Of a stretch of DNA of 56,659 bases, positions 3,883 through 56,625 are shown piece by piece. The stretch comes from a virus (taxonomy: Duplodnaviria; Caudoviricetes). Under the pieces are notes generated by a model. It did not search any database and was not told where the DNA came from. It saw nothing but the letters and a program-made list of their open reading frames with translations. Every line of letters begins with the position of its first letter. Position 1 is the stretch's first letter. Position numbers and translations under genes: made by a program. The stretch is taken from positions 1 to 56,659 of the IMG/VR virus record IMGVR_UViG_3300019935_000003. One strand, given 5' to 3'.

Positions 3883-4354
3883 CTTTCATCCACTGATCAA
3901 AGGAATCTTCTATTTTATTTGCGCCTAAATCATTTTTAAGTCTTTCTATTGCTTTATCTTTTGTGTATAGCTTGTATTTATATACTATTTTACCATTCCC
4001 CTCTGAGTCTAAATGCTCCACAATTGTAGCCTCTTGGACTGCTGCACGAATATGTGTAGGGAATTTATGAGGGCGCAAAGGTTCCCCTGTATTTTTATCA
4101 AATAACTCTGTGAAATCAGAAAAAGCAACACACATATCATGATAATTAATATGTAATGATGTTAGGCTTTTATCTCGCTCATTTAGTAAAGTTTTGCGCC
4201 TTTCTATATCACCTTGAATCCGTTCATTTTCTAGCTCTTGCTGTACTTCACCTTGTGTTTTTTTGCCCTTATGCGCGCCATTTTCTGCAAAGTAATCAAT
4301 GACATATTGGTCTAAATATGTCTTGCCTTTCTGTTTACTATCCATTTCATCCAC
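3857..4354 (-). CDS. terS: Terminase small subunit
   Basis: Overlaps the terL start; KYKLYTKDKAIERL C-terminal motif typical of small subunits. Confidence 0.7.
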   Translation of the reverse strand: MDEMDSKQKGKTYLDQYVIDYFAENGAHKGKKTQGEVQQELENERIQGDIERRKTLLNERDKSLTSLHINYHDMCVAFSDFTELFDKNTGEPLRPHKFPTHIRAAVQEATIVEHLDSEGNGKIVYKYKLYTKDKAIERLKNDLGANKIEDSFDQWMKDAGMPTDE

Positions 4355-12957: not shown

Positions 12958-13018
12958 ACAATTTAAATTAAAAAATTTATATTATTTGGTTGACTTAAAT
13001 TTATAGCAAGCCTATAAT
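12958..13018 (+). promoter_or_regulatory. Conserved cassette promoter P4
   Basis: TTGACT(12990)-17-TATAAT(13013); its 5' leader is also similar to that of P1. Confidence 0.85.
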
Positions 13019-13064
13019 GAAGTCACTTTATAGAAAAACGCAGCACACCAAAAGGCTCATTATT

Positions 13065-14327
13065 ATGAATATGCAGGTACAGGGGTTAGAAAAAAATACA
13101 GAGTTTAAAGTTGGCTCTAAAGTTCTCGTTAAGCATAAAGCGGCAAATGGCGCGATTAAGCTTATGAAAGAGTCTATTGTTAGCTCTGAAACTACGCACA
13201 ATGTGCGCGTTGATGGTACTTCTTATTCACGACACACAACAATTCAATATGGCTGTGCAAGTAATGAAGAGTACTGCTTTATTGAGCTTGTAGCAGAAGT
13301 TGCAGAAATCCAAGAACAACAAGAAGCCCCCGAAACTGTAGAAATTCAAGCACAGTTAACAGAAAAAAAACAAGAATATAACGTTGTAGAAGAAAGTGAA
13401 AAACAAACATCTTTGTTGTTACCTAAAAATACCTCTCTGTATTGCGACTTATCCAGTCAAACACCTGAAAACCTACCTTCACTTGTAGAAAAGTCCCGCT
13501 TTTTCGATAGCTTGCAAGAGGATGCATACTACAAAGTTTATCCGTGGGAATATTTAAGTAATAGCGCAATGAGTGAACTGAAAACCCCTGCACATTTCGA
13601 TTACTTTGCCAACAAAGAAAAAAAGGAAACCGCTGCTCTAAAATTTGGTAAGCCTTTCCACTTGTTTGTTCTTGAGCCTGAAGTTTTCATCAAAATGTAT
13701 GTTGTTGTCGACGGTAATTTAAACCTAAAACACAACAAAGAAATCATCGCAGAAGCCGAGATGATGGGTAAAAAAATCATTAAGCGTGATGATATGAACA
13801 GAATCATAGGCATGAGTGAATCAATAAGAAATCACCCTTTTGCTTTAGAATTATTAGAAAATTCATACAAAGAAGTAAGCTCCTTTTGGACGGATAAGGC
13901 GACAGGGGTTAAATGTAAATCACGCGCCGACATGATCAATACAGGTCATCTTTTTGGCGCAGGTACTGACCTGAAAAGCACAATCTGTGCAGAACCCAGT
14001 GAGTTTTTAAGATCAATAATTAAATTCGCTTATCACCGACAAGCAGCAATGTATATGCGTGCATTTAACCTAAGTGATTTTTATTTTATTCCTGTTGAAA
14101 AAGAGCCGCCGTACATGTGTTGCGTTGTGAAGCTTTCTGACGAACTTATACGGCAAGGAAATAAACTTGTAGATGAAGCTTTGATTAAATTCAAGGAATA
14201 CAGGGCTTTAAACCCCAACACAATTAAGCCTTACTACACAAACGAGGTGATAGTTTTAGGTGGGGGTAAGAAGTACGGGCTTGATGATTTGGCAGCCCTT
14301 GATGATGACGAATTTTTGCAAATTTAA
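13065..14327 (+). CDS. RecE/exonuclease VIII-like PD-(D/E)XK nuclease (DUF3799-like) with N-terminal extension
   Basis: EVSSFWTD..TGVKCKSRADM...DLKST...YHRQAAMY...FYFIPVEKEPPY. Confidence 0.85.
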   Translation: MNMQVQGLEKNTEFKVGSKVLVKHKAANGAIKLMKESIVSSETTHNVRVDGTSYSRHTTIQYGCASNEEYCFIELVAEVAEIQEQQEAPETVEIQAQLTEKKQEYNVVEESEKQTSLLLPKNTSLYCDLSSQTPENLPSLVEKSRFFDSLQEDAYYKVYPWEYLSNSAMSELKTPAHFDYFANKEKKETAALKFGKPFHLFVLEPEVFIKMYVVVDGNLNLKHNKEIIAEAEMMGKKIIKRDDMNRIIGMSESIRNHPFALELLENSYKEVSSFWTDKATGVKCKSRADMINTGHLFGAGTDLKSTICAEPSEFLRSIIKFAYHRQAAMYMRAFNLSDFYFIPVEKEPPYMCCVVKLSDELIRQGNKLVDEALIKFKEYRALNPNTIKPYYTNEVIVLGGGKKYGLDDLAALDDDEFLQI

Positions 14328-20854: not shown

Positions 20855-21408
20855 TTAATGTCTCCCAAAAAAGTTGCGATAATTGGTACATCACTATCAT
20901 TATTTATAGGCTTCTCAGGTGTTGGTATACGGTATACACTTGCACGCGTTTGGTACTTTAGCTCTAAAACAGCAAGCCCTAACTGTGTTGTTCTAAACGT
21001 CATGCCGTCATCTTGTAGGCTTAGTCCTGCTAGTTCCCCGCTTAAAAAAGCCATTGACTCTACTGTATGGATTGGCTTGCTTGCAGTGACATCATTAAAA
21101 TTATCACCTTCTACGCTGTCATCAACATTGTTAAAGCTTAGACTTTCGTGCACAGATTCAAGATAATTATCTTGCACTAATTCAGGCTGTTGGATACCAG
21201 AACACACCGCCTTAGCCACCACCACGCGTGAAGAATGATAAACCAATGCATAGGCAGTATCGTCAAATGTAAAAGAGGATGCATCAATATACTTACCATC
21301 AACTTTTTTTACAAGTCGTGCGGAAAGATGATCATTACTTGTTGTTTTTTCTTGCGCCGATGCTTTAAATGTAGCTGTAACAGTGGCTTTTATTCTTTTG
21401 AATCTCAT
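20851..21408 (-). CDS. Putative tail protein (paralog of 53109-53675)
   Basis: Coupled in the tail operon; aligns by eye with the 188-aa ORF at 53 kb. Confidence 0.6.
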   Translation of the reverse strand: MRFKRIKATVTATFKASAQEKTTSNDHLSARLVKKVDGKYIDASSFTFDDTAYALVYHSSRVVVAKAVCSGIQQPELVQDNYLESVHESLSFNNVDDSVEGDNFNDVTASKPIHTVESMAFLSGELAGLSLQDDGMTFRTTQLGLAVLELKYQTRASVYRIPTPEKPINNDSDVPIIATFLGDIK

Positions 21409-23597
21409 ATTTTAAGCCTTGCTAAGAATTGCGTTTTATCCCCGTCCTTATTGTTGTATACGCCGAATTCATGACGGCGTGCCGTGTAAGTTATTTCAGC
21501 AAGGGAATAGTGATCATCATGCGTAACCATGTTTTTTCCTGAAAATTTAACCTCACCTTCAGGTGGCGTGTAAAACCACTTAATTTTTACAATATCAAAA
21601 ATCGGATCACTTACACTTGCCGCGCCGTCCTTGAATTCTACTTGCTGCGTAATTTCCCTGACCGTGACACCCTTGTATGAAATTTTTACCCATTGACGAC
21701 CTGAGTGCAGTACCTCCACATTTTGCGCCCACGGTATGCGGTATAGGAAAAGCTTACCCCCGCTGTCATCATTACCCTCAAATGTAAACGACCATTGATC
21801 ACTCTCTGCATCGGTCACTCTTACTTGGTTTATATAATCTGTTTTTCCGTAGCCTTCTGAGTAGCTTAGAACGTCGTCATCATCAGTGATATCCACAGCG
21901 GGCGCGGCAATATTCCAGTTTTTACGTTGCACAGAAAAGTGTGGGCGTATCCACAGTGACCCATCACCCAACGTAACTATATTTGCACGTATCGCCCCTG
22001 TGATTTTCTGTATAACCTCCATTGGTGTGACATCGGTATACTGGACACGTTGCGGAAAAATAAACCAGTCTACCGCGTCCCACTTAACGCTAACCCCTGC
22101 CTCGTCTGCCATAAGCTGTACCAGTTCACTAGCCATTAAACCATTTTCAAGCATCACAGCACGTTTTTTAGCCCTAGGCTCTGCCAGTTTAGCAGTGGGG
22201 CAAATGCAATGTATTGTGTATTCAGTACTGGTGGGACTTTGGCGCGACATGCTTTTTTCTTCTACAAGCATCAAATAACTTTCGTCACCTAATACTAATG
22301 TAAACTCAGAATCATAGGAGAGTGCTAAAAATGCAGCGTTATCATGCAGTGTGACCGAACCGCTATACCCATACGTCCCTCTATCGTCATTTATTGAAAC
22401 ATCGGAAATATCATACTTTTTTGCGTTAACTTGTATGTAATATTCTTTATCTATTATTTGGGCACTTGGTACTATATCAGGTTCTGAAGTATTGGAGGAA
22501 TGCAGCGTTTTTATAAAAATGCTTTTCTGCTGTAATTCATTAGAAGAATGGATTCCTTTCTGTAAATATTTGGTACAGGAATTAACACCATGCAGCGTAC
22601 TATCTATTACTTTATTTAATGAATTTACACCGTGAATTTCAGATTCTAAAAACATAGTATTAAATGACTGAATACCCGCTTCTAAATACTTAAATTGCTG
22701 TAGCTCATTAACCCCATGCAATGTACTTTCGTGCTGCTTATGGCAATCATTAAAGCCCTCAATCGACACGGCAAACAGGCAAGTTTTAAACGACTGAATA
22801 CCAGCTTCTAAGTGCTTATACTGCTGCAACTCATTAAAACTATGTAAGCCGCTTTGGTGTTCTTTCTGACAGTCGTTAAAGCCCCCTAGTGATGCAGAAT
22901 GCAGGCAAGTGTTAAGCGATTGAATACCCACTTCTAAATGTGTAAATTGCTGTAATTCATTAACTCCATGCAATGTACTTTCAAGTTCTTTTTCACACGC
23001 ATTAAGCCCACCCAATGATGCAGAAAATAAACAAGTATTTTTTGAGTGTACAGTTGACTCTAATTTATTGTATTGCTCAATATCAAAAAAGCTTTGCAAC
23101 CCACTTTCAAAATAAACAACACTGGAATTTACACCCTGTATACCAGCCTGTAATCTATCTTTCTGCTGAATATGTAAAGTTGATTCTATTAGATTGATTA
23201 CTTTCTGTGTTATTGTGACATCAAATAATGATGTATTGCTACTTTGTATGCCATAATGCAGCTGTATGTATTGTTTCCAATTTATACGTAAAGCCATGTT
23301 GCTACGCATTGAACTCTTTTGTTTCCAGTTGAGCTGTAATGCATTACTACGCCTATTTGTACTATGTTGAACCCAATTTATTTGCAGTCCTGACTTTTCC
23401 CCATAGCTGCTTTTTTGAGTCCAATTAATACGAACTCCTATAGAGCTGGAGGGGCTGCCTTGGTTAGCGGAAAAGTTAAAAACAATATTATTCTTATCAG
23501 GGGGGGTGTAAGACTGCTTAAAATCAAAAACAATATTATTCTTGTTGGGGGGGTATAAGGCATATCGGATTACACTAAATACGTGAAAAAATAACAT
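21405..23597 (-). CDS. Tail hub/structural protein with internal repeats
   Basis: ~39-aa repeats (LESTLHGVNELQQFxHLExGIQSxxTCL) followed by a hub-like domain; start uncertain. Confidence 0.65.
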   Translation of the reverse strand: MLFFHVFSVIRYALYPPNKNNIVFDFKQSYTPPDKNNIVFNFSANQGSPSSSIGVRINWTQKSSYGEKSGLQINWVQHSTNRRSNALQLNWKQKSSMRSNMALRINWKQYIQLHYGIQSSNTSLFDVTITQKVINLIESTLHIQQKDRLQAGIQGVNSSVVYFESGLQSFFDIEQYNKLESTVHSKNTCLFSASLGGLNACEKELESTLHGVNELQQFTHLEVGIQSLNTCLHSASLGGFNDCQKEHQSGLHSFNELQQYKHLEAGIQSFKTCLFAVSIEGFNDCHKQHESTLHGVNELQQFKYLEAGIQSFNTMFLESEIHGVNSLNKVIDSTLHGVNSCTKYLQKGIHSSNELQQKSIFIKTLHSSNTSEPDIVPSAQIIDKEYYIQVNAKKYDISDVSINDDRGTYGYSGSVTLHDNAAFLALSYDSEFTLVLGDESYLMLVEEKSMSRQSPTSTEYTIHCICPTAKLAEPRAKKRAVMLENGLMASELVQLMADEAGVSVKWDAVDWFIFPQRVQYTDVTPMEVIQKITGAIRANIVTLGDGSLWIRPHFSVQRKNWNIAAPAVDITDDDDVLSYSEGYGKTDYINQVRVTDAESDQWSFTFEGNDDSGGKLFLYRIPWAQNVEVLHSGRQWVKISYKGVTVREITQQVEFKDGAASVSDPIFDIVKIKWFYTPPEGEVKFSGKNMVTHDDHYSLAEITYTARRHEFGVYNNKDGDKTQFLARLKI
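22560..23110 (-). repeat. Coding tandem repeats, ~117-bp period
   Basis: Recurring GACTGAATACC.GCTTCTAA and CCATGCAATGTACTTTC blocks. Confidence 0.75.
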
Positions 23598-37515: not shown

Positions 37516-39708
37516 TTAAAGCTCTTCTATTTCAACAGTTAAAAGCCCTGTTGTATTAGAAACAGAATTATTCAAGTCACAGTTATAAAACACACTATCA
37601 TTTAAAATTGTGTACTTATTATTGGTATCGTCAGTGGTTGACTGATAGGAGTAGTTATAAGAGCCGCTTTCCCCTTCAGATAAGTTACTGCAACGTAATC
37701 GGCTTGTGTCGTACACTTTGACACCTAAATCTGTTTGTCGATTAGTCCATGCTGCAATCTGTAAAGAGCGACGTAAGAAACCACCTAATGTGTATGTGCT
37801 GCCACTACTGTTTATTGTCGTGACTTCACGCCCTGCCAAGTTGACCGCGCTAATCTCTTGCCAGTCAAAAATCCCTTTTAAATTATCATCATGTACGTTA
37901 ATCGTGTTGATAAAGCGTGTATTATTATTTTGCCCTTGCCAGTTTCCAATAAGTTCACCTGCATCTTCGACAACATCAATTGATGCATTTAGTAAACGTT
38001 GTGTAGAATTAAGTTGTACCGTGTAACTAGGAACACTTGTACCCATATTCCCGCCACTAGCAAGACGCGAAAAAGGCAAGGAAACCGATAATTCAGGCAA
38101 TGTATGAGCAATATTTACAACAGTACTGCGCGTTGTTACTGCACTGTTGGCTGTACGCGTAGCCTTCATTGTTAAGTTGGGCGTATCAATGTTGTAGCCC
38201 CCACCATTGCGTGTCACGGCAAGCTGGGAGGGGGTAGGCGATTCTATTAATAATTCAGAATTTGAAGAGAATGCTGTGGCGGTGTCTGCATTGATCACAC
38301 TGTGAAACACAGTTGCCTGCTCACTATCTTTTAATGCTTGCTGACCAGTTGGGTATTCTGTATTTATAAAGTCGATGCTAGGGTGCAAGTTATTGACATT
38401 TAAGACATGTATACCATTATCACCACCATGTTCTGCTGTGTTGTACATATCAGAACTTGATCCTGTTGAGTCAGTCACATTAAGTACAGCCCCTAGCTGC
38501 TGCAATGTATTACCTTTATCAGCAACTGTGACCGTAAATGTATGGACTGTGTCTTCACTTGCTGTATGCGTTACGGCTTTTAGTGCTTCAGCATTAAATA
38601 CTTGCACCATCTCAACAGGTTCTGACGCGATCACTTTTAAGAGGAATGTATCCCCTTCTTTTAATTCTGTTTGCCCTACTGGATATTCACCAGTGAAATA
38701 AGCATTTAAAATTTTAGGCTTAGATTTCATGGTAACCGTGGCAACATCTTCACCACCGTTAGACTTGACCGCTTTAATATCAAATGTTTGTAGGCTTGCG
38801 GGAATCTCTAAATCAATCACACCACGATAAAGCAGCGGGCTATCAGTACCTGACATTGTTACCGTTTCACCGTTCACCTCAACAACAGGCACATAATTCA
38901 CACCGCTCATGGCATCAACTGTTACACGAATTAGGCGCGTGTCAGATTGGCAAGTTTCAAGCGTTTTGCCTTGACTGCTGAATACTTTAGAGCCAACATT
39001 TCCAGAACCTTGTGGCTCAATATTCGTAATAAAAACACCACCTTGGTTTGTTGTTTCGGTAGGTGCTGTGGGTTCTGTAGGCGTTGGTGCAGTAGGTGCA
39101 CTGGTTACTGTGTTAGGCATAGTGTTGCAACTTGATTTCGCTTGGCAGTTTGGTTGATCATAAAACGTAGCAGGTGAACGCCCATGAAATTTATCCATCA
39201 CATTCTGTGTAAGCCGTTTTGGTTTTCCACATACAAAAATACGACTTGAATTATCAAGTTGCTTTTCTGTAACTGGCAATAAATTTATGTCACTATTAGC
39301 AATTTCTTTTAAGCGTTTTAGAGCTTTTTCGTAACGCTTTAGGACATCTTCAGCAACTGCACCAGACCCGCCACCATGCAGATAGTAGTAAGCAATATCA
39401 CAAGATATGCCGCTAATCATTGCGGGAACTGGTGCGGGTAAAGGTGTTTGATATTTCTTAAAAAGGTACGAGTCCACATCGCTATCAGCACGCTGGCAAG
39501 ACCATGACAACACACGCTTAGCAGATAAAAGCGCGGCATTTTCTTCTTCAGAATTACCGACCGTGTTTAGATCACAAATAGCTTTATAGAAAAATGCTTC
39601 AGTTAACACATAGGGTTTATCGTCTTTTGGCTTAAAGCATAAGTCTTTTAAAGAGCTAGGAAACTCTAAAGACATATATTCAAAAGTTGCATAAACCCCT
39701 GTGTACAT
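37516..39708 (-). CDS. Head-tail adaptor (Mu gp36/DUF1320-like) fused to a long beta-rich extension
   Basis: ADSDVDSYL..KYQTPL..VP.MI..ISCDIAYYYL...V.KRYEKALKRLKEIA, then a PT-rich linker and ~500 aa Ig-like region. Confidence 0.75.
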   Translation of the reverse strand: MYTGVYATFEYMSLEFPSSLKDLCFKPKDDKPYVLTEAFFYKAICDLNTVGNSEEENAALLSAKRVLSWSCQRADSDVDSYLFKKYQTPLPAPVPAMISGISCDIAYYYLHGGGSGAVAEDVLKRYEKALKRLKEIANSDINLLPVTEKQLDNSSRIFVCGKPKRLTQNVMDKFHGRSPATFYDQPNCQAKSSCNTMPNTVTSAPTAPTPTEPTAPTETTNQGGVFITNIEPQGSGNVGSKVFSSQGKTLETCQSDTRLIRVTVDAMSGVNYVPVVEVNGETVTMSGTDSPLLYRGVIDLEIPASLQTFDIKAVKSNGGEDVATVTMKSKPKILNAYFTGEYPVGQTELKEGDTFLLKVIASEPVEMVQVFNAEALKAVTHTASEDTVHTFTVTVADKGNTLQQLGAVLNVTDSTGSSSDMYNTAEHGGDNGIHVLNVNNLHPSIDFINTEYPTGQQALKDSEQATVFHSVINADTATAFSSNSELLIESPTPSQLAVTRNGGGYNIDTPNLTMKATRTANSAVTTRSTVVNIAHTLPELSVSLPFSRLASGGNMGTSVPSYTVQLNSTQRLLNASIDVVEDAGELIGNWQGQNNNTRFINTINVHDDNLKGIFDWQEISAVNLAGREVTTINSSGSTYTLGGFLRRSLQIAAWTNRQTDLGVKVYDTSRLRCSNLSEGESGSYNYSYQSTTDDTNNKYTILNDSVFYNCDLNNSVSNTTGLLTVEIEEL

Positions 39709-40226
39709 TATTGTTTCCCTTCTTTTTCAGAATCAGGAATGGCTTCTTTTAACACTTTCACAGCATCTTGTACTGCTGCTACTGCCTCCAAAGCATCGGC
39801 TATTTTTTCAATATCGATACCTTGAACTGCATCATTAACTTTTTCAGCTTCAGGTGCTTCTTTTGGCTGTGGGGTATTAGATACAAAAGCATTGATATCA
39901 ATCCCTGTCTTCTTGTGTGCAGCACTAAAAATAAGACGCTTTACAGTATCAATTCCTACAAGCGAAATACCGACAACAACACCAAATAAAAGCGGTGCTT
40001 CTGCTGCAATATCAATTTTAAGGAAATGAAATGCTAAGACACCGATACCCGTCGCCACTACACTATTCGACAGTGCAAGAATAAGAATACCGTTCCACTC
40101 TAAATGTGCGTGTGACTTATGGACGCGTGGAATGAAGGCAACAAAACCAGCCAGTACAACAAGAAAAGCGGGTAAGTATTGTTCTAATGAGCTAAGGAGT
40201 TTTTCAGGCATATCCATAGACTCCAT
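39708..40226 (-). CDS. Membrane protein, putative holin
   Basis: Three hydrophobic segments and a charged C-terminus. Confidence 0.5.
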   Translation of the reverse strand: MESMDMPEKLLSSLEQYLPAFLVVLAGFVAFIPRVHKSHAHLEWNGILILALSNSVVATGIGVLAFHFLKIDIAAEAPLLFGVVVGISLVGIDTVKRLIFSAAHKKTGIDINAFVSNTPQPKEAPEAEKVNDAVQGIDIEKIADALEAVAAVQDAVKVLKEAIPDSEKEGKQ

Positions 40227-41263
40227 TAGCTCATCTTGGCGCGTACAAGAGCTTTAGGGCGATGACAAAACAGTAAGCGGTTACTCTCTGTTTCCACAAC
40301 AACATTACGTGCTTTTTGCGGATCTGAATGATCTAACCCTTGGCTGGCATAAAGAGGTTTACCAAGTGTGTTTACTTCAGAAATTAAGTTAGCAGGGGCT
40401 TGGTAATCAAAAAATGTATTTGAAGTGCCATCAGGGTATAAAATTGCTTCGCCGTCTGGGATTGTTTCCAACTCTTGACCATTTTTACTTTTGAATTTAG
40501 TTTTCTGAACTTGAAATGTAATACCGCCAAATGTAAAACCATCACTAACGCGATCACCTAGTCGAGCCTGTGCTTTTTCATATCCACGATACACTTCAAC
40601 AACGCTTTCATGCTCAACAAATGCATCAAAAAAGCTTCGAGAACAAAGTGCTCTGACACCTGTCATGCGCTCATTTTGCAAGCCTTCATAAACTTTTTGA
40701 TACGCGTTGTCGCACATGCTACGAACTTTTGTTGTGCTAACATTTAACTTGAAATTCACAACCTGCTGCGCAATCTTGTATTCACTAAACAGATCAATAA
40801 ATTCTGTACCCTCACCATCTACAATCCGACCTTTCAAGCACCCAATCATCATAAATTCAAGTGTAAATCTATGAGAATTAACAAGAACACTTAATTTTTG
40901 ATTCATTAAGTTTGCCAGCGACTCAAGATTGTTTGGGTTGTTGGGGTTGTTATAATTCTGCAATTCTTGCACTGAAATGTTTGTGTCATCTGTAAAATGA
41001 GGCACTTCTATATAGCGTCTACGCTGCGTACTTTTTCCACTAGACTTTACACGCGGGGCTTGTCGGTCTGTAAAAGCTAATACACCAGAACGCTCTTCAA
41101 TTTCACGCACAGAAAATGATGTTGTGCTGATAGGTGAAGGCGTAAAAACACTTAATAAATTTAAGCTGTTATCGACACTATCCATATAAGAGATAGTTTC
41201 TGTTAAATTAGCGTGGCTGAAATGATCGCTATCAAAGGGGTTTTGTACTAGGGGCTGTGGCAT
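40226..41263 (-). CDS. Major capsid protein (lambda E family)
   Basis: NPFDSDHFS..NLTETI...H.FTLEFMMIGCLKG.IVD.EG...ESNRLLFCHRPKALV. Confidence 0.9.
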   Translation of the reverse strand: MPQPLVQNPFDSDHFSHANLTETISYMDSVDNSLNLLSVFTPSPISTTSFSVREIEERSGVLAFTDRQAPRVKSSGKSTQRRRYIEVPHFTDDTNISVQELQNYNNPNNPNNLESLANLMNQKLSVLVNSHRFTLEFMMIGCLKGRIVDGEGTEFIDLFSEYKIAQQVVNFKLNVSTTKVRSMCDNAYQKVYEGLQNERMTGVRALCSRSFFDAFVEHESVVEVYRGYEKAQARLGDRVSDGFTFGGITFQVQKTKFKSKNGQELETIPDGEAILYPDGTSNTFFDYQAPANLISEVNTLGKPLYASQGLDHSDPQKARNVVVETESNRLLFCHRPKALVRAKMS

Positions 41264-41265
41264 TA

Positions 41266-41616
41266 TTAAATTACCTTAATATCTAAATCTTTGAGCTGAC
41301 CAGTGATTTGCACCGTTTCTTCAGGTGTTACAGCTTCAGGAAAGTTCAAGCAATCGCCATACACCAGTGCAGTACCGTTAATCAGCGCGGGGCACGATGC
41401 AGTGGACGTAAACGTTTTATTTTTAATGCAAAGCCCAGCTACAGGGCGCGTGTCAAGTTCTGCTAAAACAACAGGAATCATTAACCCTGCATCGTTTTTT
41501 ACCAAAATGTCGCCATTTTTATATTCACCAGCGGCAAATAAAACATTTTCACGGCAAAAATCTGGGTGTACTTCAAAGTTAATTATATTTTTAATTTCTG
41601 ACTCAACGACTGGCAT
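41266..41616 (-). CDS. Head decoration protein (lambda D-like)
   Basis: FE.HPDFCRENV...; lies between the protease and capsid genes. Confidence 0.7.
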   Translation of the reverse strand: MPVVESEIKNIINFEVHPDFCRENVLFAAGEYKNGDILVKNDAGLMIPVVLAELDTRPVAGLCIKNKTFTSTASCPALINGTALVYGDCLNFPEAVTPEETVQITGQLKDLDIKVI

Positions 41617-41618
41617 AA

Positions 41619-42611
41619 TTAAGCATCCCCGCGTTGTGCTTTGGCAGCAGATAATAAAACATTAGTCTGCGCTGGCTGTTGAACACCAGCGGGCGGCTGT
41701 TCATAATTACTTAAGTGCTGCGCTCCTAGCTGCACGGATTTCTGCTGCTGCAACTGAGACATAAGAGAGTCCACAACCTTTAGTTGATGACTACTAAAAC
41801 TCATAAGGCAGTCAGTAATATTTCCCTCAAGCTTAATATCGAACTTGTCGGCGAGAGCTGTTAACTCCATTTTCTTTTTATCATTTTCCATCGCTTGCTT
41901 ATCAGCATTTGCTTTTTCAAGCTCTTGTTTTAAACGTTCATTTTCTGCTGATAGCTCAATAGAATTATCAGTGGCTGGCTGTTCTGTTTTTTGCTGCGGT
42001 TGAATTGTCGCGTTGGGTTTTGGCATGTTTTCCCCTAAATTTTGGTTTTGTTTATGGTAAGTTTCTGCAAAAGTATCTCTGTCGGCAGGATCAATTGTAA
42101 AAGCAATATGCTTAATAGTGGCATTGCTGATAATCACACCATCATTGAAATCTATACCATTAACCTTGATGGGGTCTGCATTTTTACCAACAGCCGTAAC
42201 CGTTTGATACTCAAAGCCAATACTAAAACGCCACGGCGCATCCTGCTTAGATTCGTTGTAAATGTTTTCCGCATTTTCATTCTGGTGAAAAAATTCACCG
42301 CTCACATGAACTTTGTCTTTTATATCTACTTTTGACACGCCGACACGTTTAGAACTCATATGGTCGAGCAGAGCAAAGATTTTCCCTGTATGTGTTTCTT
42401 CTACTTTTGTAGTGCTTAAGTCGACAATAAAGCGTTGGTATTCTTTACCGTCTACCCACATCCATCTATCGCTGACAACACCACCCGAATAGCCGACACC
42501 ATCAAATCTTTTTTGCTCAACACCTTTTTCATCAGGCTTTGCAGCAGAAAAATTAAATTCCCCCCCTATACAGTCAAGACGAAGGGATTGAACGGGATCG
42601 GGTTGTGGCAT
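41619..42611 (-). CDS. Prohead protease/scaffold
   Basis: RFDGVGYSGG...ALLDH...RVG...PWRFSIG...PADRDT followed by a coiled-coil scaffold. Confidence 0.75.
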   Translation of the reverse strand: MPQPDPVQSLRLDCIGGEFNFSAAKPDEKGVEQKRFDGVGYSGGVVSDRWMWVDGKEYQRFIVDLSTTKVEETHTGKIFALLDHMSSKRVGVSKVDIKDKVHVSGEFFHQNENAENIYNESKQDAPWRFSIGFEYQTVTAVGKNADPIKVNGIDFNDGVIISNATIKHIAFTIDPADRDTFAETYHKQNQNLGENMPKPNATIQPQQKTEQPATDNSIELSAENERLKQELEKANADKQAMENDKKKMELTALADKFDIKLEGNITDCLMSFSSHQLKVVDSLMSQLQQQKSVQLGAQHLSNYEQPPAGVQQPAQTNVLLSAAKAQRGDA

Positions 42612-42764
42612 GACGTATTACACCTATTTTTTATCTGAAATGATATGTAAAAGAATGTAGAAAACAATTATAATTGTTAAAATGTAGCAGCTAAAAAATG
42701 ATACAGCAAAAAAACCTGTGCCTAGGTGTGCATATGAGCAACTAAAATAAGATGGAGTTAAAGC

Positions 42765-43031
42765 GTGCTGAAAAGTGAAGTGATAAATCAACTATCTGAA
42801 AAGATAGATTTTTTAACTAAAAATGGGTACAGTTATTATGCAATATCAAAATTTATAGGGTGTGCACGAACAACAGTTGCAAGACTGCACAAAAAGGAGC
42901 TTAAGGACGTGGGGGGAGATGTTATAGTCGGTTTGTGTTTGTATTTTGACATGGAATTTCCATGCATACAGCACAGGAAAGATTTTCTGAAGCGCGTAGA
43001 TATAGCGCAAAGAAAAAAATACCTGGCATAG
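42765..43031 (+). CDS. Small HTH protein divergent from the late operon
   Basis: NGYSYYAISKFIGCARTTVARL. Confidence 0.7.
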   Translation: MLKSEVINQLSEKIDFLTKNGYSYYAISKFIGCARTTVARLHKKELKDVGGDVIVGLCLYFDMEFPCIQHRKDFLKRVDIAQRKKYLA

Positions 43032-43052
43032 AGTAAACTATGCCTAAGCATT

Positions 43053-43886
43053 TTATATATTAATGGTGTATTGTGAGGCAATAAACTTAAAAACAAACTC
43101 GTCGAACTCGAATCGTTTTAAGTCTAGCCTATTTCTAAGTAGATAATTAGAGAGCTTTGCTTCTTTGTCCAAGTACATTGTGTAGTTTTTGCAGTCATTT
43201 TCTTTATATTCGACTTGCCCTCTCCCTGCTGACGATAAACCTTCTTTTATATCAGTAAAGCGTTCAAGACAGTCAAAACCCGATATAAAATCGACAGCAG
43301 AAAGGTATAAATCTCCTATTTCAACCCCTTCTGTTTTGGATATAACGCTTAGTTTTACATAAAGGTAAGTTGGTATAGAAACAAAATCCGCCTTATGAAT
43401 TTTACTTGTTTTTCTACCTCTGCGCTCTTCAGAAAAAGCAGATTCATTTATAAATTCAACGCTTGTTTTTTCCACTCTTAAACTACTGTGTCTTTCTATT
43501 ACACGAAAAGCCATATATGAGTTTAATACGTTTGCAGTGAGGTACAGTCCTTCGCGTAATACAGTCATGCAATCACGAAAAGTTTTCGTAGTAATGCTAT
43601 TTAGGACATACGCTCCTTTTTTTCTTGTTGAGTACTCAATACTGTCTTTGTATTGCGCAAAGTCTTTGTCGGACTGAAAGTCTCCCTTATTATCAAATTC
43701 AGCAATATATTCAGCAAAAATTAAATCAATTGGTGCTCTCCCATAGTACGCTGCGATAACAGTTAAACGTCCTCTATACTCTTCGGGAATAGACATATTA
43801 AGAGACCTGACTGGCTCAATATACTCTACGTTTCTCCTTCTTTTTATTTCATTAACTCTTTCAAGCAGCTTATCAAAACCTTCCAT
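43053..43886 (-). CDS. Internally duplicated ribbon-helix-helix-like DNA-binding protein
   Basis: SLNMSIPEEYRGRLTVIAAYYGRAPIDL and DFVSIPTYLYVKLSVISKTEGVEIGDL align with each other and fit the RHH pattern. Confidence 0.5.
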   Translation of the reverse strand: MEGFDKLLERVNEIKRRRNVEYIEPVRSLNMSIPEEYRGRLTVIAAYYGRAPIDLIFAEYIAEFDNKGDFQSDKDFAQYKDSIEYSTRKKGAYVLNSITTKTFRDCMTVLREGLYLTANVLNSYMAFRVIERHSSLRVEKTSVEFINESAFSEERRGRKTSKIHKADFVSIPTYLYVKLSVISKTEGVEIGDLYLSAVDFISGFDCLERFTDIKEGLSSAGRGQVEYKENDCKNYTMYLDKEAKLSNYLLRNRLDLKRFEFDEFVFKFIASQYTINI

Positions 43887-43910
43887 AATTATTTTTTCTC
43901 CATAATATAC

Positions 43911-43955
43911 TGTGTATTTAAGTCATAATTATAATTTATTTATCTTAAATACACA
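43911..43955. promoter_or_regulatory. Perfect 12-bp inverted repeat (putative operator)
   Basis: TGTGTATTTAAG-21-CTTAAATACACA between the translocase stop and the RHH gene start. Confidence 0.65.
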
Positions 43956-43964
43956 ATGTGTTTT

Positions 43965-46553
43965 TTATATCGCTGCTGCCTTTTTTTCTTCTCTTAAAGC
44001 CTTTAATGCTTTGGAAACTGTTCCCTTGTGTGTGTCGAGAGCTACAGCAATTTTAGACTGTGTTACTTCTCCTTTTGCGGAAAGTATTTTGTATACCTCT
44101 ATTACTTTCTGCTTTGTCGTCATACCAGCCGATTCCTTAATAACTTGAATTGGATCAGTTTCCACTTCTTTACTTTTAATAACTGGAGTTTCCTCCTTAA
44201 CTCCCAAGTTTCCACTGGCTACCGTTTCCACTTTGTTTTCCTCACTTCTCTGTGGCTCTGTGTGTTGAGCTGTATTTTCAATATTTGAAGGCTGGTTTCC
44301 AATGTTTCCAGTGGAAACAGTAGAAACACCCTTGGGAGTTGTTGTAAAACTACCACTATCGGCAAAGTTCATGCCATAATATAAGGGAGTCACACCAAAA
44401 TCACGAGGATATTTATTTGCTTTGTTAATGGTAGTATTTGCATTACTAATACTTGGAATGTCTTTTTTATCATGTGGTTTATTAAAAAACCCATCTTTTT
44501 TCTGTGTGGTTTCCATAGTTTCCACTTGAGTTTCCCGCATGGTTTCCATTGATTTAGGGGTTTCCACAGGGGAAACTTTTTCCTTTAAAGGTCTTTCGTT
44601 ACTGGCAACACTGGAAACAACAGGGGTATCTTTCGGTAATGGTTTACGTAAAACTTTCTGTAATTTTTCACGCAATAAAGGTGTAAAACCATGGTGCCGT
44701 GCTTCTAATTTATCAGCAATGTCGTATGTGTCTTGCTCGGATATAAACATTGTTTGAACCTTAATAAGATTCTTACCTTCAAATGCAAATAACCCTTGAC
44801 CCTGCCCCGCTAAATCTTCAGCCCCCTTGTAACCGATAACAGGAACAGATTCACGCCACGAATTTACACGTAATGATAGCTTTGCTGAATTCCCTTTAGC
44901 ATAGCGCGGTACAGTTTCTGCACTGGGAATCTGCGTGGAGAGTATTAAATGTATTCCTGCTGCACGCGCCTTACCTGCTAATTCATTAAGCACCCAAGCT
45001 GCTGTTTGTTCACTATCAGCATTCCCCTTATCATCTAATTCCACTTTTATTTTACTTGAACCAAGCCCTGCAACCTCGTCAACGACAAAGAAAATATAAG
45101 GCATTTTTTCTGCTGAAAACTTAGCGTGAAACTTTTGGATATTAGAGCAACGATTACTACTTAAGCGGCGCAAACGTTTAAGCATTTCATTGTATGTAAA
45201 TACAAGTAAAGCACAGCTATCTTGTACTGTATCTGAGAATCCTATTGTGTGTGGTAAATTTTGGTAGCGGGATAATTCAACGCCACACTTAAGGTCATTT
45301 AAAATTATGTTGACTTGCTCAGGTGAATGATTTTCTAAAATCTGCGTGATATAGGAGTGCATTGCCACTGACTTTCCACTATTAGTCATACCACTAAAAA
45401 TAAGGTGGCAAAAATCTATAAATGATGCATTTAGTTGCTCACCACTACCGATAGCTTTACCTATGCATACAGTAAGTTGTTTTTGCTCTTGCTGCATTTT
45501 TTGATAATGTTTGGGCAAGTAATCAATGATCATGCCTTCCTTTTTTTCTATTTCAGATTGCGCTACTTCAGATGCTACAAGTTTACCAATCTGATCATCA
45601 TCTTTATTTTCAAGCGTAGGGGGGGGGGTGTGACTTTTTACCCAGCCTTGAGAATTACCAGTGTCGCCTTTATTTTTGCCTTTCTTTTTCTTTTCCTGAA
45701 TAACAGCAACGCCCCCTGAAAAATGCGGCGCAAAAAAGCAGAAACTACCAGCAAGCTCGCACAGTATCGCCATAAACCACAATAGGTAAGTTATTGAATC
45801 ATTATAAGTTGCATCACTCCCAAGAGCGTTAAGGATGGACTGTAACATGGTAAATGCGTCATTTCGCTCTTCATTTATGTTAACCGAATTTTTAGATATA
45901 CTATTGAAGTTTTCCCGCGCCTTTTGCTCACGCTCTAATGCTAATTCATAAAGCTTTTTGTTCTCTATAATTTCCAGTGTGTTCTGGTAACTATGGCAGT
46001 ATTTTTTATAATAAAATGAACTGCTTTTAGAAGGCTCACAAGTTTCCGTCATTGCTGCAACAGTTTGCCCTGTGTACTTTCCTGCACTATTTTCAGCAGC
46101 TTGGTTTAATATGTTTTCAGCGTTAATATAAAGTTGCTCAATAGTTTCCCCCCCCCTGTATGTCACAAGCTTGTTAACTTCTTTTCTTGCCTCATCGAGT
46201 TCATTTCTAGCCCCCTCATAAAGCAAACTCTCACGTTTAAGGGTTTCATGACGCTCTTGTATTGTATCGCGCGTATAGCCTGAAAATGAGACGAGAGAAA
46301 CAGCGGTTAATGCCAGCCAGACAAGGAATGTAAGCGCAAAAGAAACAGGCTTTTCATTCGCCCGATGGTATGCCATTAAGTATGCGGTTGAATACTTCAG
46401 TAAATCGAATGCAACACCCATTGCTGCAACAACAAGGCTAAATTGAATGTAAAAATTGAAATTAAAAAATATAGATATAGCACCTAGCACTATACCAATA
46501 AGTGTCATGAAAAATGCAGGGGAATCCCTAAAAAAAGAAGTCTCTTTAGACAT
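43965..46553 (-). CDS. Membrane-anchored FtsK/SpoIIIE-family DNA translocase with C-terminal HTH (TraB-like architecture)
   Basis: Four TM segments; HLIFSGMTNSGKS, DLKCGVEL, NEMLKR, FVVDEVAGL, LAGKARAAGIHLILSTQIP, GAEDLAGQG; C-terminal VTQSKIAVALDTHKGTVSKALKAL. Confidence 0.92.
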   Translation of the reverse strand: MSKETSFFRDSPAFFMTLIGIVLGAISIFFNFNFYIQFSLVVAAMGVAFDLLKYSTAYLMAYHRANEKPVSFALTFLVWLALTAVSLVSFSGYTRDTIQERHETLKRESLLYEGARNELDEARKEVNKLVTYRGGETIEQLYINAENILNQAAENSAGKYTGQTVAAMTETCEPSKSSSFYYKKYCHSYQNTLEIIENKKLYELALEREQKARENFNSISKNSVNINEERNDAFTMLQSILNALGSDATYNDSITYLLWFMAILCELAGSFCFFAPHFSGGVAVIQEKKKKGKNKGDTGNSQGWVKSHTPPPTLENKDDDQIGKLVASEVAQSEIEKKEGMIIDYLPKHYQKMQQEQKQLTVCIGKAIGSGEQLNASFIDFCHLIFSGMTNSGKSVAMHSYITQILENHSPEQVNIILNDLKCGVELSRYQNLPHTIGFSDTVQDSCALLVFTYNEMLKRLRRLSSNRCSNIQKFHAKFSAEKMPYIFFVVDEVAGLGSSKIKVELDDKGNADSEQTAAWVLNELAGKARAAGIHLILSTQIPSAETVPRYAKGNSAKLSLRVNSWRESVPVIGYKGAEDLAGQGQGLFAFEGKNLIKVQTMFISEQDTYDIADKLEARHHGFTPLLREKLQKVLRKPLPKDTPVVSSVASNERPLKEKVSPVETPKSMETMRETQVETMETTQKKDGFFNKPHDKKDIPSISNANTTINKANKYPRDFGVTPLYYGMNFADSGSFTTTPKGVSTVSTGNIGNQPSNIENTAQHTEPQRSEENKVETVASGNLGVKEETPVIKSKEVETDPIQVIKESAGMTTKQKVIEVYKILSAKGEVTQSKIAVALDTHKGTVSKALKALREEKKAAAI
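44158..44618. repeat. Intragenic GTTTCC/GGAAAC hexamer array
   Basis: GTTTCC at 44158, 44188, 44208, 44224, 44295, 44304, 44509, 44518, 44530, 44542 and 44560; GGAAAC at 44313, 44571 and 44613. Confidence 0.9.
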
Positions 46554-53108: not shown

Positions 53109-53675
53109 TTAGGTGTCTGTTACCGCGCCGATAAAGATCACGTGGTTTACAGCCTCCTCCCCATTTAGATCGTTGGCTTTTGGTGGAGATTGTATTTCGT
53201 AAATATCGACGGTGGTGCTATACGTCACTGCGTAGCTTGCTAAGCCTGCTTGTGACGTTGTAAAAGTTAAGCCGTCACTCTCTAGCTTTATACCTTCCAA
53301 TGCGCTCCCATAAAGCAGCTCTAAGGAGTAGTTATTGCCGTGCACTGGCTTATCAACCTTATCATCATTTATAAACTCCTTTTCAGGGTCTATATCCGAT
53401 TCTAGTTTATTAAAGACAATAGCGTCTCGCATGTCTATTGTTTTCTCCCCTACCTTTGCTGCTGTTCCAAAGCTTGTATGTACTTGCGCCACAAATACGT
53501 TAGGACTTCTATAAACAAAAGCATAAAGAGACTCCCCTATTTTTCCCTTGCTTGATGCTGAATATTCCCCAGTGCTTAGTTTCTTCATAAGCTTTGCAGA
53601 AATGTGGGCATCTGTATCCGCGTCTGAGAAAGCAAATCTTGCTTCAAGCGTTGCTGACAAACCCATACTTATCAC
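53109..53675 (-). CDS. Displaced paralog of tail-operon protein 20851-21408
   Basis: HISAKLMKK/HLSARLVKK, YAFVYRS/YALVYHS, KPVH/KPIH, DGLTFTTSQAGLA/DGMTFRTTQLGLA. Confidence 0.75.
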   Translation of the reverse strand: MISMGLSATLEARFAFSDADTDAHISAKLMKKLSTGEYSASSKGKIGESLYAFVYRSPNVFVAQVHTSFGTAAKVGEKTIDMRDAIVFNKLESDIDPEKEFINDDKVDKPVHGNNYSLELLYGSALEGIKLESDGLTFTTSQAGLASYAVTYSTTVDIYEIQSPPKANDLNGEEAVNHVIFIGAVTDT

Positions 53676-53786: not shown

Positions 53787-54104
53787 GTAAACATACCGTT
53801 TGTGTATAATGTAAGTTACTTATTTTATTTAAAATAATTGCGGTAAAGGTCTATTAAGCTTCTATGTAAACTAGCCGTAAACCTTTTTCTTGCTTCCCTA
53901 AGTGATTGAAATTTAGATAGTAAAAAATACACGTTTCAAGTGGTGGCGTGTGTATTTGTATGTTTTATTGCGACCTAAGTAAACATCCACCGTAAACCTA
54001 GCAGTAAGCTTATTTATTTCTTATTGTAAGTACATGTATTCAATCGTTTTTTATGGCAAATATAACGAGTAAACATACCCGCAAACATAGCCGTAAACCT
54101 TTTT
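53787..54104 (+). repeat. Intergenic direct-repeat array (GTAAAC core)
   Basis: GTAAAC at 53787, 53866, 53877, 53979, 53992, 54069 and 54093, variants at 54004 and 54081; TAGCCGTAAACCTTTTT occurs twice. Confidence 0.8.
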
Positions 54105-54137: not shown

Positions 54138-54611
54138 TTACATAAGGGAGTTTATTAGTGTCTGTAGCTTGCTATTTTCCTCTTTAAGCTCTTGTATCTG
54201 CGTTTTTAAAGCTCTTTCGTCGCGCAATATTGCGAGCAATTCGCTCTCCATTTTCTGTCTTTCTTCTCGCTCTCTTTGTAGTTCAAGTGTTAGTTGGGCT
54301 ATTTTTACATTTTCCTTTCTCTGCTCGGGGGCTGCCCTGTCCATTTCTCCGCGCCCATGTAAAAGCCAGTCGTGACTTATACCGAGGGCTTGGGCAAGCT
54401 CATAAGTCATTTTGGAGTGCTTTATGTCTCCCTTTTCAAGCATACTTATATATTGCTGCTGAGCACCTTCGCCTGCTATGTCTTCGCCATTTTTTTCCCT
54501 TATTTCGTTGACGAGTTTTGCAAGCTTTGACTGTGTAAGTGAGCGCAGTCCTCTTGTGAATTTTAACCTGTCGCTTAGTGTATTTAAAATTATACCGCTT
54601 GTTTTTCCCAT
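54138..54611 (-). CDS. CI-like XRE repressor with coiled-coil C-terminus (switch 2)
   Basis: TLSDRLKFTR..RSLTQSKLA...QQYISMLEKG...ELAQALGISHDWLLHGRGEM; no S24 peptidase domain. Confidence 0.85.
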   Translation of the reverse strand: MGKTSGIILNTLSDRLKFTRGLRSLTQSKLAKLVNEIREKNGEDIAGEGAQQQYISMLEKGDIKHSKMTYELAQALGISHDWLLHGRGEMDRAAPEQRKENVKIAQLTLELQREREERQKMESELLAILRDERALKTQIQELKEENSKLQTLINSLM

Positions 54612-55253: not shown

Positions 55254-56348
55254 ATGCCAAAAAAAATAGGAGAAATGATACATATTGTATTTTATGTAAA
55301 TGGAAAACGTATGCAACGCACAACCGGGTTAAAATTTAACTCAAGAAATTGGCGTAAAGCTGCAAAAATGGAAACAGAAGAAAGAAGTAAAGCATTAAAA
55401 GATAAGCCATTTTTAAGCATTCCCTCTGAAAAAGAGCGTGCAAATAGATTAACAGTAGAACGTGTTTTAAGTGAATACTTAGAATACCTTGAGTTGAGAG
55501 TCAGATCAGGCGACGAAAAAAAACGCGTATTTGATGAAAAAAAGCGTAACTCTTTAAAATTTGAAGCATTATTTCCTGTAATTATTTTTGAACTGACAAA
55601 AAAAAATGTTTTGGAGCATATAAATACTAGGCAATTAGAATTTAACGAGACAAATGATAATGTAAACAGGCAGTTATCCGTTCTTTCATTGGCTATACAA
55701 CATGCACAAAAATGGCATGGCGTAATAATAAGCAATGTAACAACGGGGTTAAGGTTGAAAAGAAACTCTCCTAGAACTCGACATGCAAGTATTGAAGAAA
55801 TTGAACTGTTATTGTCAGCAGCAAAGAAAAGTGAAAATGTAAAATTATATGATTACGTAGTCATTCTTTTAAATACAGGTATGCGCGTCACAGAGCTGCT
55901 TAGTTTAAAAGAAAGTGAGTTATGTATAGAGGATAGAACAGCGACATTAAAAGACACTAAAAACGGCTCTACGAGAGTAGTTATATTAAATAATAAGGCT
56001 GTTAAATCGTTTAAAAGCCTTTTAGCTATAAAAAAGGCTCAAAGTAAAGGTATTTATAGTCCTTATATATTCCCGTCCGACTCTGAAAAAGGACATGTAT
56101 TATGCTTCAAAAAAAGCTATAACTCAGCGTTAAAAACATCAGGCATAATATGGAAAGGAGAGGATAAATTAACAATGAGGGACTTAAGGACAACATATGC
56201 AACACACGCACTGAACTCAGGTGTACCCCTGAATGTTGTGCAGGGAATGCTGGGGCATAGCAGCCCAGAATTGACAGCTCGTGTATATGCATTTACAAAA
56301 CTATCAGAAGATAAAAATAAAAATATACTGCTAAGATTTAAGATTTAA
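55254..56348 (+). CDS. int: Tyrosine integrase
   Basis: NTGMRVTELL, DTKNG, RDLR (HxxR variant), LGHSS and catalytic Tyr in ARVYA; adjacent to att. Confidence 0.95.
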   Translation: MPKKIGEMIHIVFYVNGKRMQRTTGLKFNSRNWRKAAKMETEERSKALKDKPFLSIPSEKERANRLTVERVLSEYLEYLELRVRSGDEKKRVFDEKKRNSLKFEALFPVIIFELTKKNVLEHINTRQLEFNETNDNVNRQLSVLSLAIQHAQKWHGVIISNVTTGLRLKRNSPRTRHASIEEIELLLSAAKKSENVKLYDYVVILLNTGMRVTELLSLKESELCIEDRTATLKDTKNGSTRVVILNNKAVKSFKSLLAIKKAQSKGIYSPYIFPSDSEKGHVLCFKKSYNSALKTSGIIWKGEDKLTMRDLRTTYATHALNSGVPLNVVQGMLGHSSPELTARVYAFTKLSEDKNKNILLRFKI

Positions 56349-56532: not shown

Positions 56533-56593
56533 TTAGCTACTTTGGGGATGGTGGGTCTGGAGTGACTCGAACACTCGACCTGCCGATTATGAG
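56533..56593. repeat. Right att site
   Basis: Second copy of the 61-bp repeat, overlapping the intact tRNA. Confidence 0.95.
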
Positions 56594-56625
56594 TCGGATG
56601 CTCTAACCAACTGAGCTACAGACCC
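56549..56625 (-). tRNA. tRNA with CAT anticodon, probably tRNA-Ile2 (lysidine type); integration target
   Basis: Reverse complement GGGTCTGTAGCTCAGTTGGTTAGAGCATCCGACTCATAATCGGCAGGTCGAGTGTTCGAGTCACTCCAGACCCACCA folds as a 77-nt cloverleaf with CCA; the GACTCATAATC arm resembles Ile2. Confidence 0.9.

Follow-up and report, generated by a model that had tools for sequence, protein, structure and literature searches.

The window analysed here is the virus record IMGVR_UViG_3300019935_000003 at its full length of 56,659 bp, all of it viral and none of it host DNA. Within its gene for a membrane-anchored FtsK/SpoIIIE-type ATPase (hereafter the translocase), we found a dense array of the hexamer GGAAAC and its complement GTTTCC, with 15 copies spanning the last 650 bp of the open reading frame (ORF). 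The array is very probably a set of candidate binding sites that acts at the level of DNA. The explanation that fits the whole best, which we put forward tentatively and which may well be wrong, is that these are at least 15 candidate protein-binding sites that would serve self-recognition by the pump, in the manner of the clt loci of Streptomyces plasmids.

The two strands of the window hold 36 copies of GGAAAC/GTTTCC. Shuffled windows gave a mean of 24.06 (standard deviation 4.32), and 36 copies were reached in one of 100 shuffles. The preliminary description of this DNA had placed 14 copies within 44158–44618, a count that proved exact, and had overlooked one further copy at 44013–44018. 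From the hexamer frequency in the rest of the record, 0.25 copies are predicted for the 650-bp stretch that holds these 15. This confirmed the suspected local enrichment, as counted over a record without host DNA. The remaining 21 copies were at background level, 10 on the plus and 11 on the minus strand. GGAAAC forms the strongest hexamer cluster of the record, the next independent one having seven copies. An unbiased k-mer count also ranked GGAAAC first among 6-mers, GTTTCCA first among 7-mers (12 against 0.09 expected) and GTGGAAAC first among 8-mers (six against 0.02 expected). The copies are arranged along the gene as follows.

44509–44618: array cluster A, seven hexamers, at 44509, 44518, 44530, 44542 and 44560 on the minus strand and at 44571 and 44613 on the plus strand
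44331–44505: spacer of 175 bp between clusters, GC content 0.326 against 0.41–0.43 in the clusters
44295–44319: array cluster B, three hexamers at 9-bp spacing, at 44295 and 44304 on the minus strand and at 44313 on the plus strand
44158–44229, minus strand: array cluster C, four hexamers, at 44158, 44188, 44208 and 44224, all in the coding orientation
44013–44018, plus strand: lone fifteenth copy (as TGGAAAC), at V846-S847 in the last predicted helix of the putative helix-turn-helix (HTH) domain

Two inverted pairs are included. Cluster A contains the pair GTTTCC-ACAGG-GGAAAC at 44560–44576, and cluster B contains a perfect 8-1-8 palindrome, TGTTTCCA-G-TGGAAACA, at 44303–44319; both had been described before and both are present in the sequence. 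A one-mismatch copy, AGAAAC, follows cluster B at 44322–44327. The spacer codes for a conserved peptide, YPxDFG..P..YGM.FAD. Read on the coding (minus) strand, eight copies encode x-E-T (codon phase 2), three encode G-N (phase 0) and four, inverted, encode V-S. The earlier figures of eight, three and three were thus reproduced, the fourth V-S being the copy at 44013. The three frame and orientation combinations that are not used would, by the genetic code, give Phe or an (R/G/W)-Lys pair. The hexamer is confined to contexts that give small polar residues suited to a flexible linker.

Selection on DNA had been suggested for this word, and the codons bear this out for the word itself, not for the peptides only. 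When the protein sequence of amino acids (aa) 641–862 was kept constant and its codons were sampled at phage frequencies, 2.55 hexamers were obtained on average (standard deviation 1.22, maximum 8), and none of 20,000 draws reached 15. Resolved by class, this resampling gave 0.14 G-N copies against the three present, 0.17 inverted V-S copies against four, and 2.2 x-E-T copies against eight. Permutation of the region's own synonymous codons, a harsher control that retains the skewed codon pool, averaged 4.22 hexamers with at most 11, and again 0 of 20,000 permutations reached 15. The flanks, which played no part in choosing the copies, are also shared: C stands at position -4 and A at -3 in 10 of the 15 copies each, and T at -1 in 12, in common across frames and orientations. 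The motif can thus be extended to CAnTGGAAAC. Twelve of the 19 window copies of TGGAAAC lie inside the array, as do all six record copies of CANTGGAAAC (0.49 expected).

A competing explanation is that ET, GN and VS are selected as peptides in a low-complexity linker, and that their codons are alike from small duplicated units. We consider this improbable. A linker rich in T and E is enriched in ET dipeptides, and the spacings in cluster A (9, 12, 12 and 18) are multiples of three and compatible with slippage. However, a single hexamer with its CAnT flank is common to three unrelated dipeptides, two frames and both orientations, and neither resampling test produced it. The codon choices are also far from phage usage: GGA (0.16 of its family) and AAC (0.30) are used at three of three G-N sites, TCC (0.09) at all four V-S sites, and GTG (0.20) for all four Val residues at x. 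Long exact repeats are absent; because exact direct repeats in the array never exceed 11 nt, the shared codons do not appear to stem from recent duplication.

A relative of the linker was found at the protein level. A HMMER search of 1.84 billion representatives returned 22,191 proteins at E ≤ 0.001, and the best 150 of these matched the ATPase domain only, with the sole exception of P0025, the top match. P0025 is a 211-aa fragment at the edge of a 1707-bp JGI contig and shows 71% identity to translocase aa 656–859 without gaps. Its motif-encoded residues are kept at 28 of 28 positions (14 covered hexamers), against 110 of 162 other positions (Fisher test, p = 5.5 × 10^-5). Restricted to the linker, the comparison is 26 of 26 against 67 of 111 (p = 1.1 × 10^-5). 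Such retention of the dipeptides would also result from selection on the protein, as the peptide explanation holds. The x of x-E-T differs at five of eight sites (M to V, R to Q, V to G twice, and E to K), and a G-ending codon is available for each replacement. P0025 has one ET and two GN more than the translocase.

A natural DNA variant bears on the same question. Contigs of four sequencing runs were aligned to the stretch, and one informative piece was obtained, a 198-nt contig from run X11 that covers 44497–44672 at 92% identity with 14 differences. The variant retains six of the seven covered hexamers letter for letter. At its five x-E-T sites, none of the 10 third-codon bases within the hexamer is changed, against three of the five third bases of the adjoining Thr codons (p = 0.022 by a hypergeometric calculation done by hand). 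The x residue varies and its third base stays G, which argues against the peptide explanation. The variant and P0025 have four substitutions in common (P to T, S to P, M to V and R to Q); the variant therefore seems to come from a real relative of intermediate position, and sequencing error is not its likely source. Its changes agree in direction with DNA-level selection and provide modest evidence for it.

The gene that holds the array has the following layout.

43965–46553, minus strand: ORF of the 862-aa membrane-anchored FtsK/SpoIIIE-type ATPase, with a C-terminal linker and a probable HTH
46272–46526, minus strand: N-terminal hydrophobic segments, aa 10–94, about three predicted transmembrane helices (Kyte-Doolittle)
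45726–45794, minus strand: fourth hydrophobic segment, aa 254–276, predicted transmembrane
44694–45518, minus strand: FtsK/SpoIIIE ATPase domain, aa 346–620
44181–44630, minus strand: linker, aa 642–791, predicted to be without secondary structure (AlphaFold2 model)
43971–44153, minus strand: C-terminal helical domain, aa 801–861, probable HTH without wing (AlphaFold2)

The ATPase domain belongs to the FtsK/SpoIIIE family, with a Pfam PF01580 score of 79.4 bits (cut-off 24) over aa 351–544. The protein also matches PHROG 1358 (E = 1.2 × 10^-56), and carries a Walker A motif, GMTNSGKS, at aa 388 and a Walker B motif, FFVVDE, at aa 488. Against the NCBIfam FtsK equivalog it scored 84 bits, with a cut-off of 1566. 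In the N-terminal region, Kyte-Doolittle windows of 19 aa reached at least 1.6 at aa 10–36, 34–52 and 69–94, which predicts membrane segments there; an Atlas search with the N-terminal 345 aa gave low-scoring matches only. PADLOC matched the ATPase domain alone (SspH, mad8), besides weak HTH matches, and found no defence-system partner among the seven other phage ORFs submitted.

The array had been placed in a disordered linker just ahead of an HTH, and the structural predictions support this arrangement. In the AlphaFold2 model of aa 622–862, which was built on an alignment of only two sequences, the predicted local distance difference test (pLDDT) score of the linker was below 50, with zero DSSP elements. 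T, K, E, S, V, N and P are abundant in its composition. The C-terminal domain was modelled as helices at pLDDT of about 70–80 and is probably an HTH. Its sequence gave sub-threshold matches to a CARF/CasR-type HTH (E = 1 × 10^-3), DUF7343 (E = 0.0046), the MarR chain 7dvn (E = 0.0084) and the Csa3 HTH (E = 0.0097), and a Foldseek search with the model returned zero matches at E ≤ 0.001. We also noted an in-frame ATG (Met811, 44121–44123, minus strand) shortly before this domain, with AAGGAA (44133–44138) 9 nt ahead of it. The HTH might, from these signals, also be produced as a separate protein of about 52 aa.

In the mechanism that we propose, the coding sequence of the disordered linker would hold a localised cis-acting set of at least 15 sites, with the core GGAAAC and the extended form of approximately CAnTGGAAAC, and the word would be maintained by selection on DNA. 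The pump is presumably hexameric, judging from the behaviour of its family. Its C-terminal HTH domains, each on a tether of about 150 aa, would bind the clustered sites with high avidity. This binding would mark the phage DNA and load or tether it at the membrane motor, in the way that TraB acts on clt of Streptomyces plasmids. The array itself, its excess over what codons predict, its conservation and the layout of domains are observed; both protein binding to the array and the role of the HTH as binder we infer. The HTH is an economical candidate for the reader: its tether of about 150 aa comes right after the array-encoding stretch, and there would be several such domains per ATPase ring. 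We regard reading of the array by the gene's own HTH as a tentative assignment.

A further step would be to view the ORF as a single cassette of motor, reader and address, in which the coding DNA of the tether is the address for the pump's HTH and the phage genome alone is captured. Such a cassette would pump or tether the phage genome at the membrane or septum, and could move phage DNA between host compartments or cells independently of virions. We consider this extended form unlikely.

The closest known arrangement is that of TraB and clt. As the relevant passages of PMC3583192, PMC4447253 and PMC3429521 describe them, clt loci are arrays of 5–9-bp direct and inverted repeats beside an FtsK-like tra gene, and are read by the C terminus of TraB, which recognises 8-bp repeats. 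The clt of pWTY27 overlaps the 3' end of the translocase gene, with 16 bp of its length within traA, according to such passages in PMC3583192 and PMC4447253. Like the Streptomyces systems (pSVH1, pJV1, pIJ101, pWTY27 and the actinomycete integrative and conjugative elements, AICEs), the phage gene encodes a membrane-associated FtsK-like ATPase, with a DNA-reading C terminus that is only predicted here, and its 3' part holds short repeats, direct and inverted, in a local array. Unlike theirs, the phage array does not extend past the ORF: all of it falls in the linker-coding part, where it is read in three peptide contexts. It is carried by a tailed temperate phage of a microbial-mat metagenome and not by an actinomycete plasmid or AICE, and no spd-type genes were seen in the record. 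The translocase scored 22.8 bits against the NCBIfam TraB profile NF041214, with a cut-off of 800, and did so in the ATPase region only. Because of this score and the phage carrier, we limit the claim to one of working like TraB/clt, not of being a member of that system. With that restriction, a localised clt-like cis site is the best reading of the array, and self-recognition of the clt type is the best single mechanism, although a tentative one.

Several observations besides the low TraB score weigh against this account. The HTH assignment is weakly supported, its matches all being sub-threshold and the Foldseek search empty, and the FtsK gamma domain PF09397 was not detected in the translocase at E ≤ 0.01 in the Pfam search. 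P0025 is the single homologue of the linker and HTH and is known as a protein only, so peptide-level and DNA-level selection are not separable from its conservation. The X11 variant, a single contig at a depth of 2.3, has lost one hexamer through an E to K change at 44564. Of the 176 bases covered, 42 belong to hexamers, and they take only one of the 14 differences, with 3.3 expected; this is not significant alone (P(≤1) of about 0.12 by a binomial calculation done by hand). A comparable array was absent from five other FtsK-like loci (L001, L119, L120, L121 and L122), which represent two named phages, one unverified phage contig, one contig of a Patescibacteria metagenome-assembled genome (MAG) and one metagenome contig. 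Finally, no function is known that a TraB-like pump would have in a tailed temperate phage.

A resemblance to the FtsK-orienting polar sequences (KOPS) had also been suggested for the array, and this part of the preliminary description did not hold. KOPS and the SpoIIIE recognition sequences (SRS) are words dispersed genome-wide, with polarity toward dif. The phage array shares with the FtsK-gamma/KOPS and SpoIIIE/SRS pairs a motor of the FtsK/SpoIIIE family, a predicted C-terminal DNA-reading domain, and a short asymmetric word with an orientation bias (11 of 15 copies one way). However, beyond one 600-bp cluster the word is unskewed and at background, and the gamma domain that reads KOPS-type words was the one not detected.

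The array may instead be a real DNA site that another phage protein reads, serving as a centromere-like or regulatory array, a pump adaptor site or an autoregulatory roadblock. We rate this possibility below self-recognition by the pump and think it rather unlikely, although the DNA-level evidence for the array applies to it equally. The leading candidate is the product of the gene downstream of the translocase.

43053–43886, minus strand: 277-aa gene, candidate ribbon-helix-helix (RHH) protein, perhaps a tandem one, possible reader of the array

The 277-aa gene is apparently co-operonic with the translocase, with a gap of 78 bp between them and a terminator-like site at 43044–43025, and the two genes probably form one operon. 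The Atlas hits to its product that carry a Pfam family all belong to the RHH clan (Arc, ParG, RHH_3 and NikA-like), with scores of 0.85–0.86. Among the structure-based Atlas matches are CopG/RHH proteins and one ParG/56B-like entry, with a TM-score of 0.76 by target over residues 21–134. Direct and inverted copies at a spacing of 9–12 bp suit RHH dimers. The omega protein of pSM19035, on heptad arrays, and ParG, on parH, are RHH proteins that act on very short repeat arrays. The phage array resembles theirs in its very short repeats, both direct and inverted, at a spacing of about one helical turn, and in the candidate RHH gene next door, which is a lead. It differs in that this RHH neighbour is unconfirmed and that no ParA-type partner was identified among the phage ORFs scanned. 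Every Atlas score was at or below 0.90, which is lead level by the tool's own grading. An RHH match to the 277-aa protein was absent from the Pfam and PDB phmmer searches (each at E ≤ 10), and the protein had no Pfam, PHROG, NCBIfam or PDB sequence match.

A weaker candidate for the other reader is an 88-aa HTH protein (42765–43031), which has a candidate repeat of its own upstream, at 42679–42714. This protein also matched Cbp1, which binds CRISPR repeats, with E = 0.0039 and 17 bits (cut-off 140). An XRE-type HTH gene (54138–54611, minus strand) adjoins a separate array of GTAAAC, one base off GGAAAC. This second array lies at 53787–54098 in the 462-bp intergenic region between the ORF at 53109–53675 (minus strand) and the XRE-type gene. 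It has seven copies in one orientation and paired units, for example GTAAACATAC..CCGTAAACCT, at a spacing of 11–13 bp, and probably supplies the lysogeny or regulatory region with operators or iterons. Since the 88-aa and XRE-type proteins each have repeats of their own nearby, elimination points, weakly, to a reader other than these two for the GGAAAC array.

The 78-bp gap between the translocase and the downstream genes itself contains a 19-nt inverted repeat, at 43904–43962. A piece of it of about 34–42 nt is matched by short contigs of X6 and X11, with four differences and unlike flanks. These metagenomes may therefore contain a palindromic element of this type at other places.

The arrangement of repeat clusters on both sides of the AT-rich spacer raised another explanation, that of a replication origin or iteron set in the linker-coding part, with the clusters flanking an unwinding region of 175 bp. 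The repeats of ori-lambda fall in the inter-domain linker of O. This origin provides a precedent for protein-binding repeats within a gene, as the relevant part of PMC5043065 describes for the coding sequence of O, and the candidate protein-binding repeats of the phage are likewise embedded in a coding sequence. However, the gene encodes a translocase and not a member of an initiator family, and its repeats are 6–10 bp long, against 19 bp in ori-lambda. The replication module of the phage lies apart from the array, at a distance of 42 kb, and comprises a DnaC-like loader (1165–1980) and an upstream 312-aa gene. Of the array copies, only two come as close as one mismatch to the DnaA-box consensus. 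We therefore consider an origin here very unlikely. Inside the 312-aa gene (ORF 239–1177) we observed a separate cluster of CTAAAA/TTTTAG, with seven copies in 460 bp (378–840), together with GCTAAAAGRCTT repeats. This cluster is a candidate phage origin inside a putative initiator gene, just upstream of the DnaC-like loader.

Least probable of all, in our view, is that a host factor such as DnaA or ParB/Spo0J reads the word, or that the word works as RNA, for example as a GGA sponge of the CsrA type or as a mimic of a CRISPR repeat. A loose likeness to a parS half-site or a DnaA box can be seen in GTTTCCAC, and the coding-strand RNA would contain 11 GGA motifs. The Rfam family CRISPR-DR58 matched 44542–44577 at E = 0.84 and 21.6 bits, below the gathering score of 38, which is at chance level. 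The invariant half of the GGAAAC motif is the variable half of the DnaA box. The four inverted copies and the two palindromes favour recognition of duplex DNA over RNA. The three weak hits of a CRISPR flavour (44542–44577, 43971–44153 and 42765–43031) probably represent generic HTH similarity.

Both types of host site were also tried as candidates with their consensus sequences, and were rejected. For parS, four matches within three mismatches of the 16-mer were found in the window (1.74 expected), none of them in the array. For a DnaA-box array, two sites lay within one mismatch of TTWTNCACA in 44000–44650.

As far as sequence searches reach, the translocase lineage is nearly an orphan. P0026, from a gammaproteobacterial MAG, has 43% identity in the ATPase and an N terminus with transmembrane and coiled-coil segments. 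It ends right after the ATPase, and the linker and HTH are therefore specific to the present lineage. Against phages, blastn gave zero matches, and tblastn gave 377 records, all below 60% identity and in the ATPase part only. Viral contigs, scanned with the translocase, the capsid and P0025 as queries, yielded no relative. The searches yielded L001 among genome contigs (32% identity in the ATPase) and L119 among metagenome contigs (31%). Word-indexed protein searches with the whole protein, the region 641–862 and the C-terminal piece returned only P0001 (a fragment identical to the translocase), P0025 and canonical FtsK.

Viral contigs with three close copies of TGGAAAC, of which there were at least 117 stretches, were examined as candidate relatives and rejected. 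Their repeats were treated as unrelated, and tblastn found a relative of the translocase in none of the 117 listed. We also observed 14–16 copies of GGAAAC/GTTTCC within 500 bp in four viral contigs (L021, L111, L061 and L023), the fetched flanks of which hold no relative of the translocase.

Should the pump prove to load at this array, recognition of double-stranded DNA in the TraB/clt style would extend beyond actinomycete plasmids to a tailed phage. A literature search on FtsK-like translocases and clt found no phage case, its matches being confined to conjugation in Streptomyces or Thermus. The PHROGs category of phage-borne FtsK/SpoIIIE-like genes is 'moron, auxiliary metabolic gene and host takeover', and self-recognition would give a first testable handle on their role. 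It would also be a clean instance of dual coding, with fifteen candidate sites fitted to three reading contexts of a disordered linker, and would bear on how linker sequences are interpreted and on whether linkers can be recoded freely. Were the cassette view correct as well, nature would offer here a clear example of a disordered linker whose sequence is set mainly by a code at the level of DNA. Whether or not another protein is the reader, the array is a strongly constrained cis element within an ORF, of a kind missed by gene-centred annotation.

By its gene content the record is a tailed temperate phage, as judged from its terminase, Mu-type portal, capsid, sheath and integrase genes. The translocase recurs, as an identical protein, on a separate 233-kb contig, and the phage therefore occurs as a prophage. 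The sequencing runs that contain the stretch are all microbial-mat metagenomes, with no RNA run listed among them. The other genes assigned in the window are as follows.

1165–1980: DnaC-like helicase loader
2353–3882, minus strand: large terminase
3857–4354, minus strand: small terminase, weak match
4432–7186: Mu-type portal and MuF protein
13017–14327: PD-(D/E)XK exonuclease
37516–42611, minus strand: sheath, major capsid and head protease
55254–56348: tyrosine integrase
56549–56625, minus strand: tRNA-Met, at the right end of the record beside the integrase

The tRNA-Met gene is likely the site at which the phage integrates. In the tail region, the 730-aa ORF at 21405–23597 (minus strand) contains a tandem repeat of 126 bp at 22656–23027, in three copies with 72% identity.

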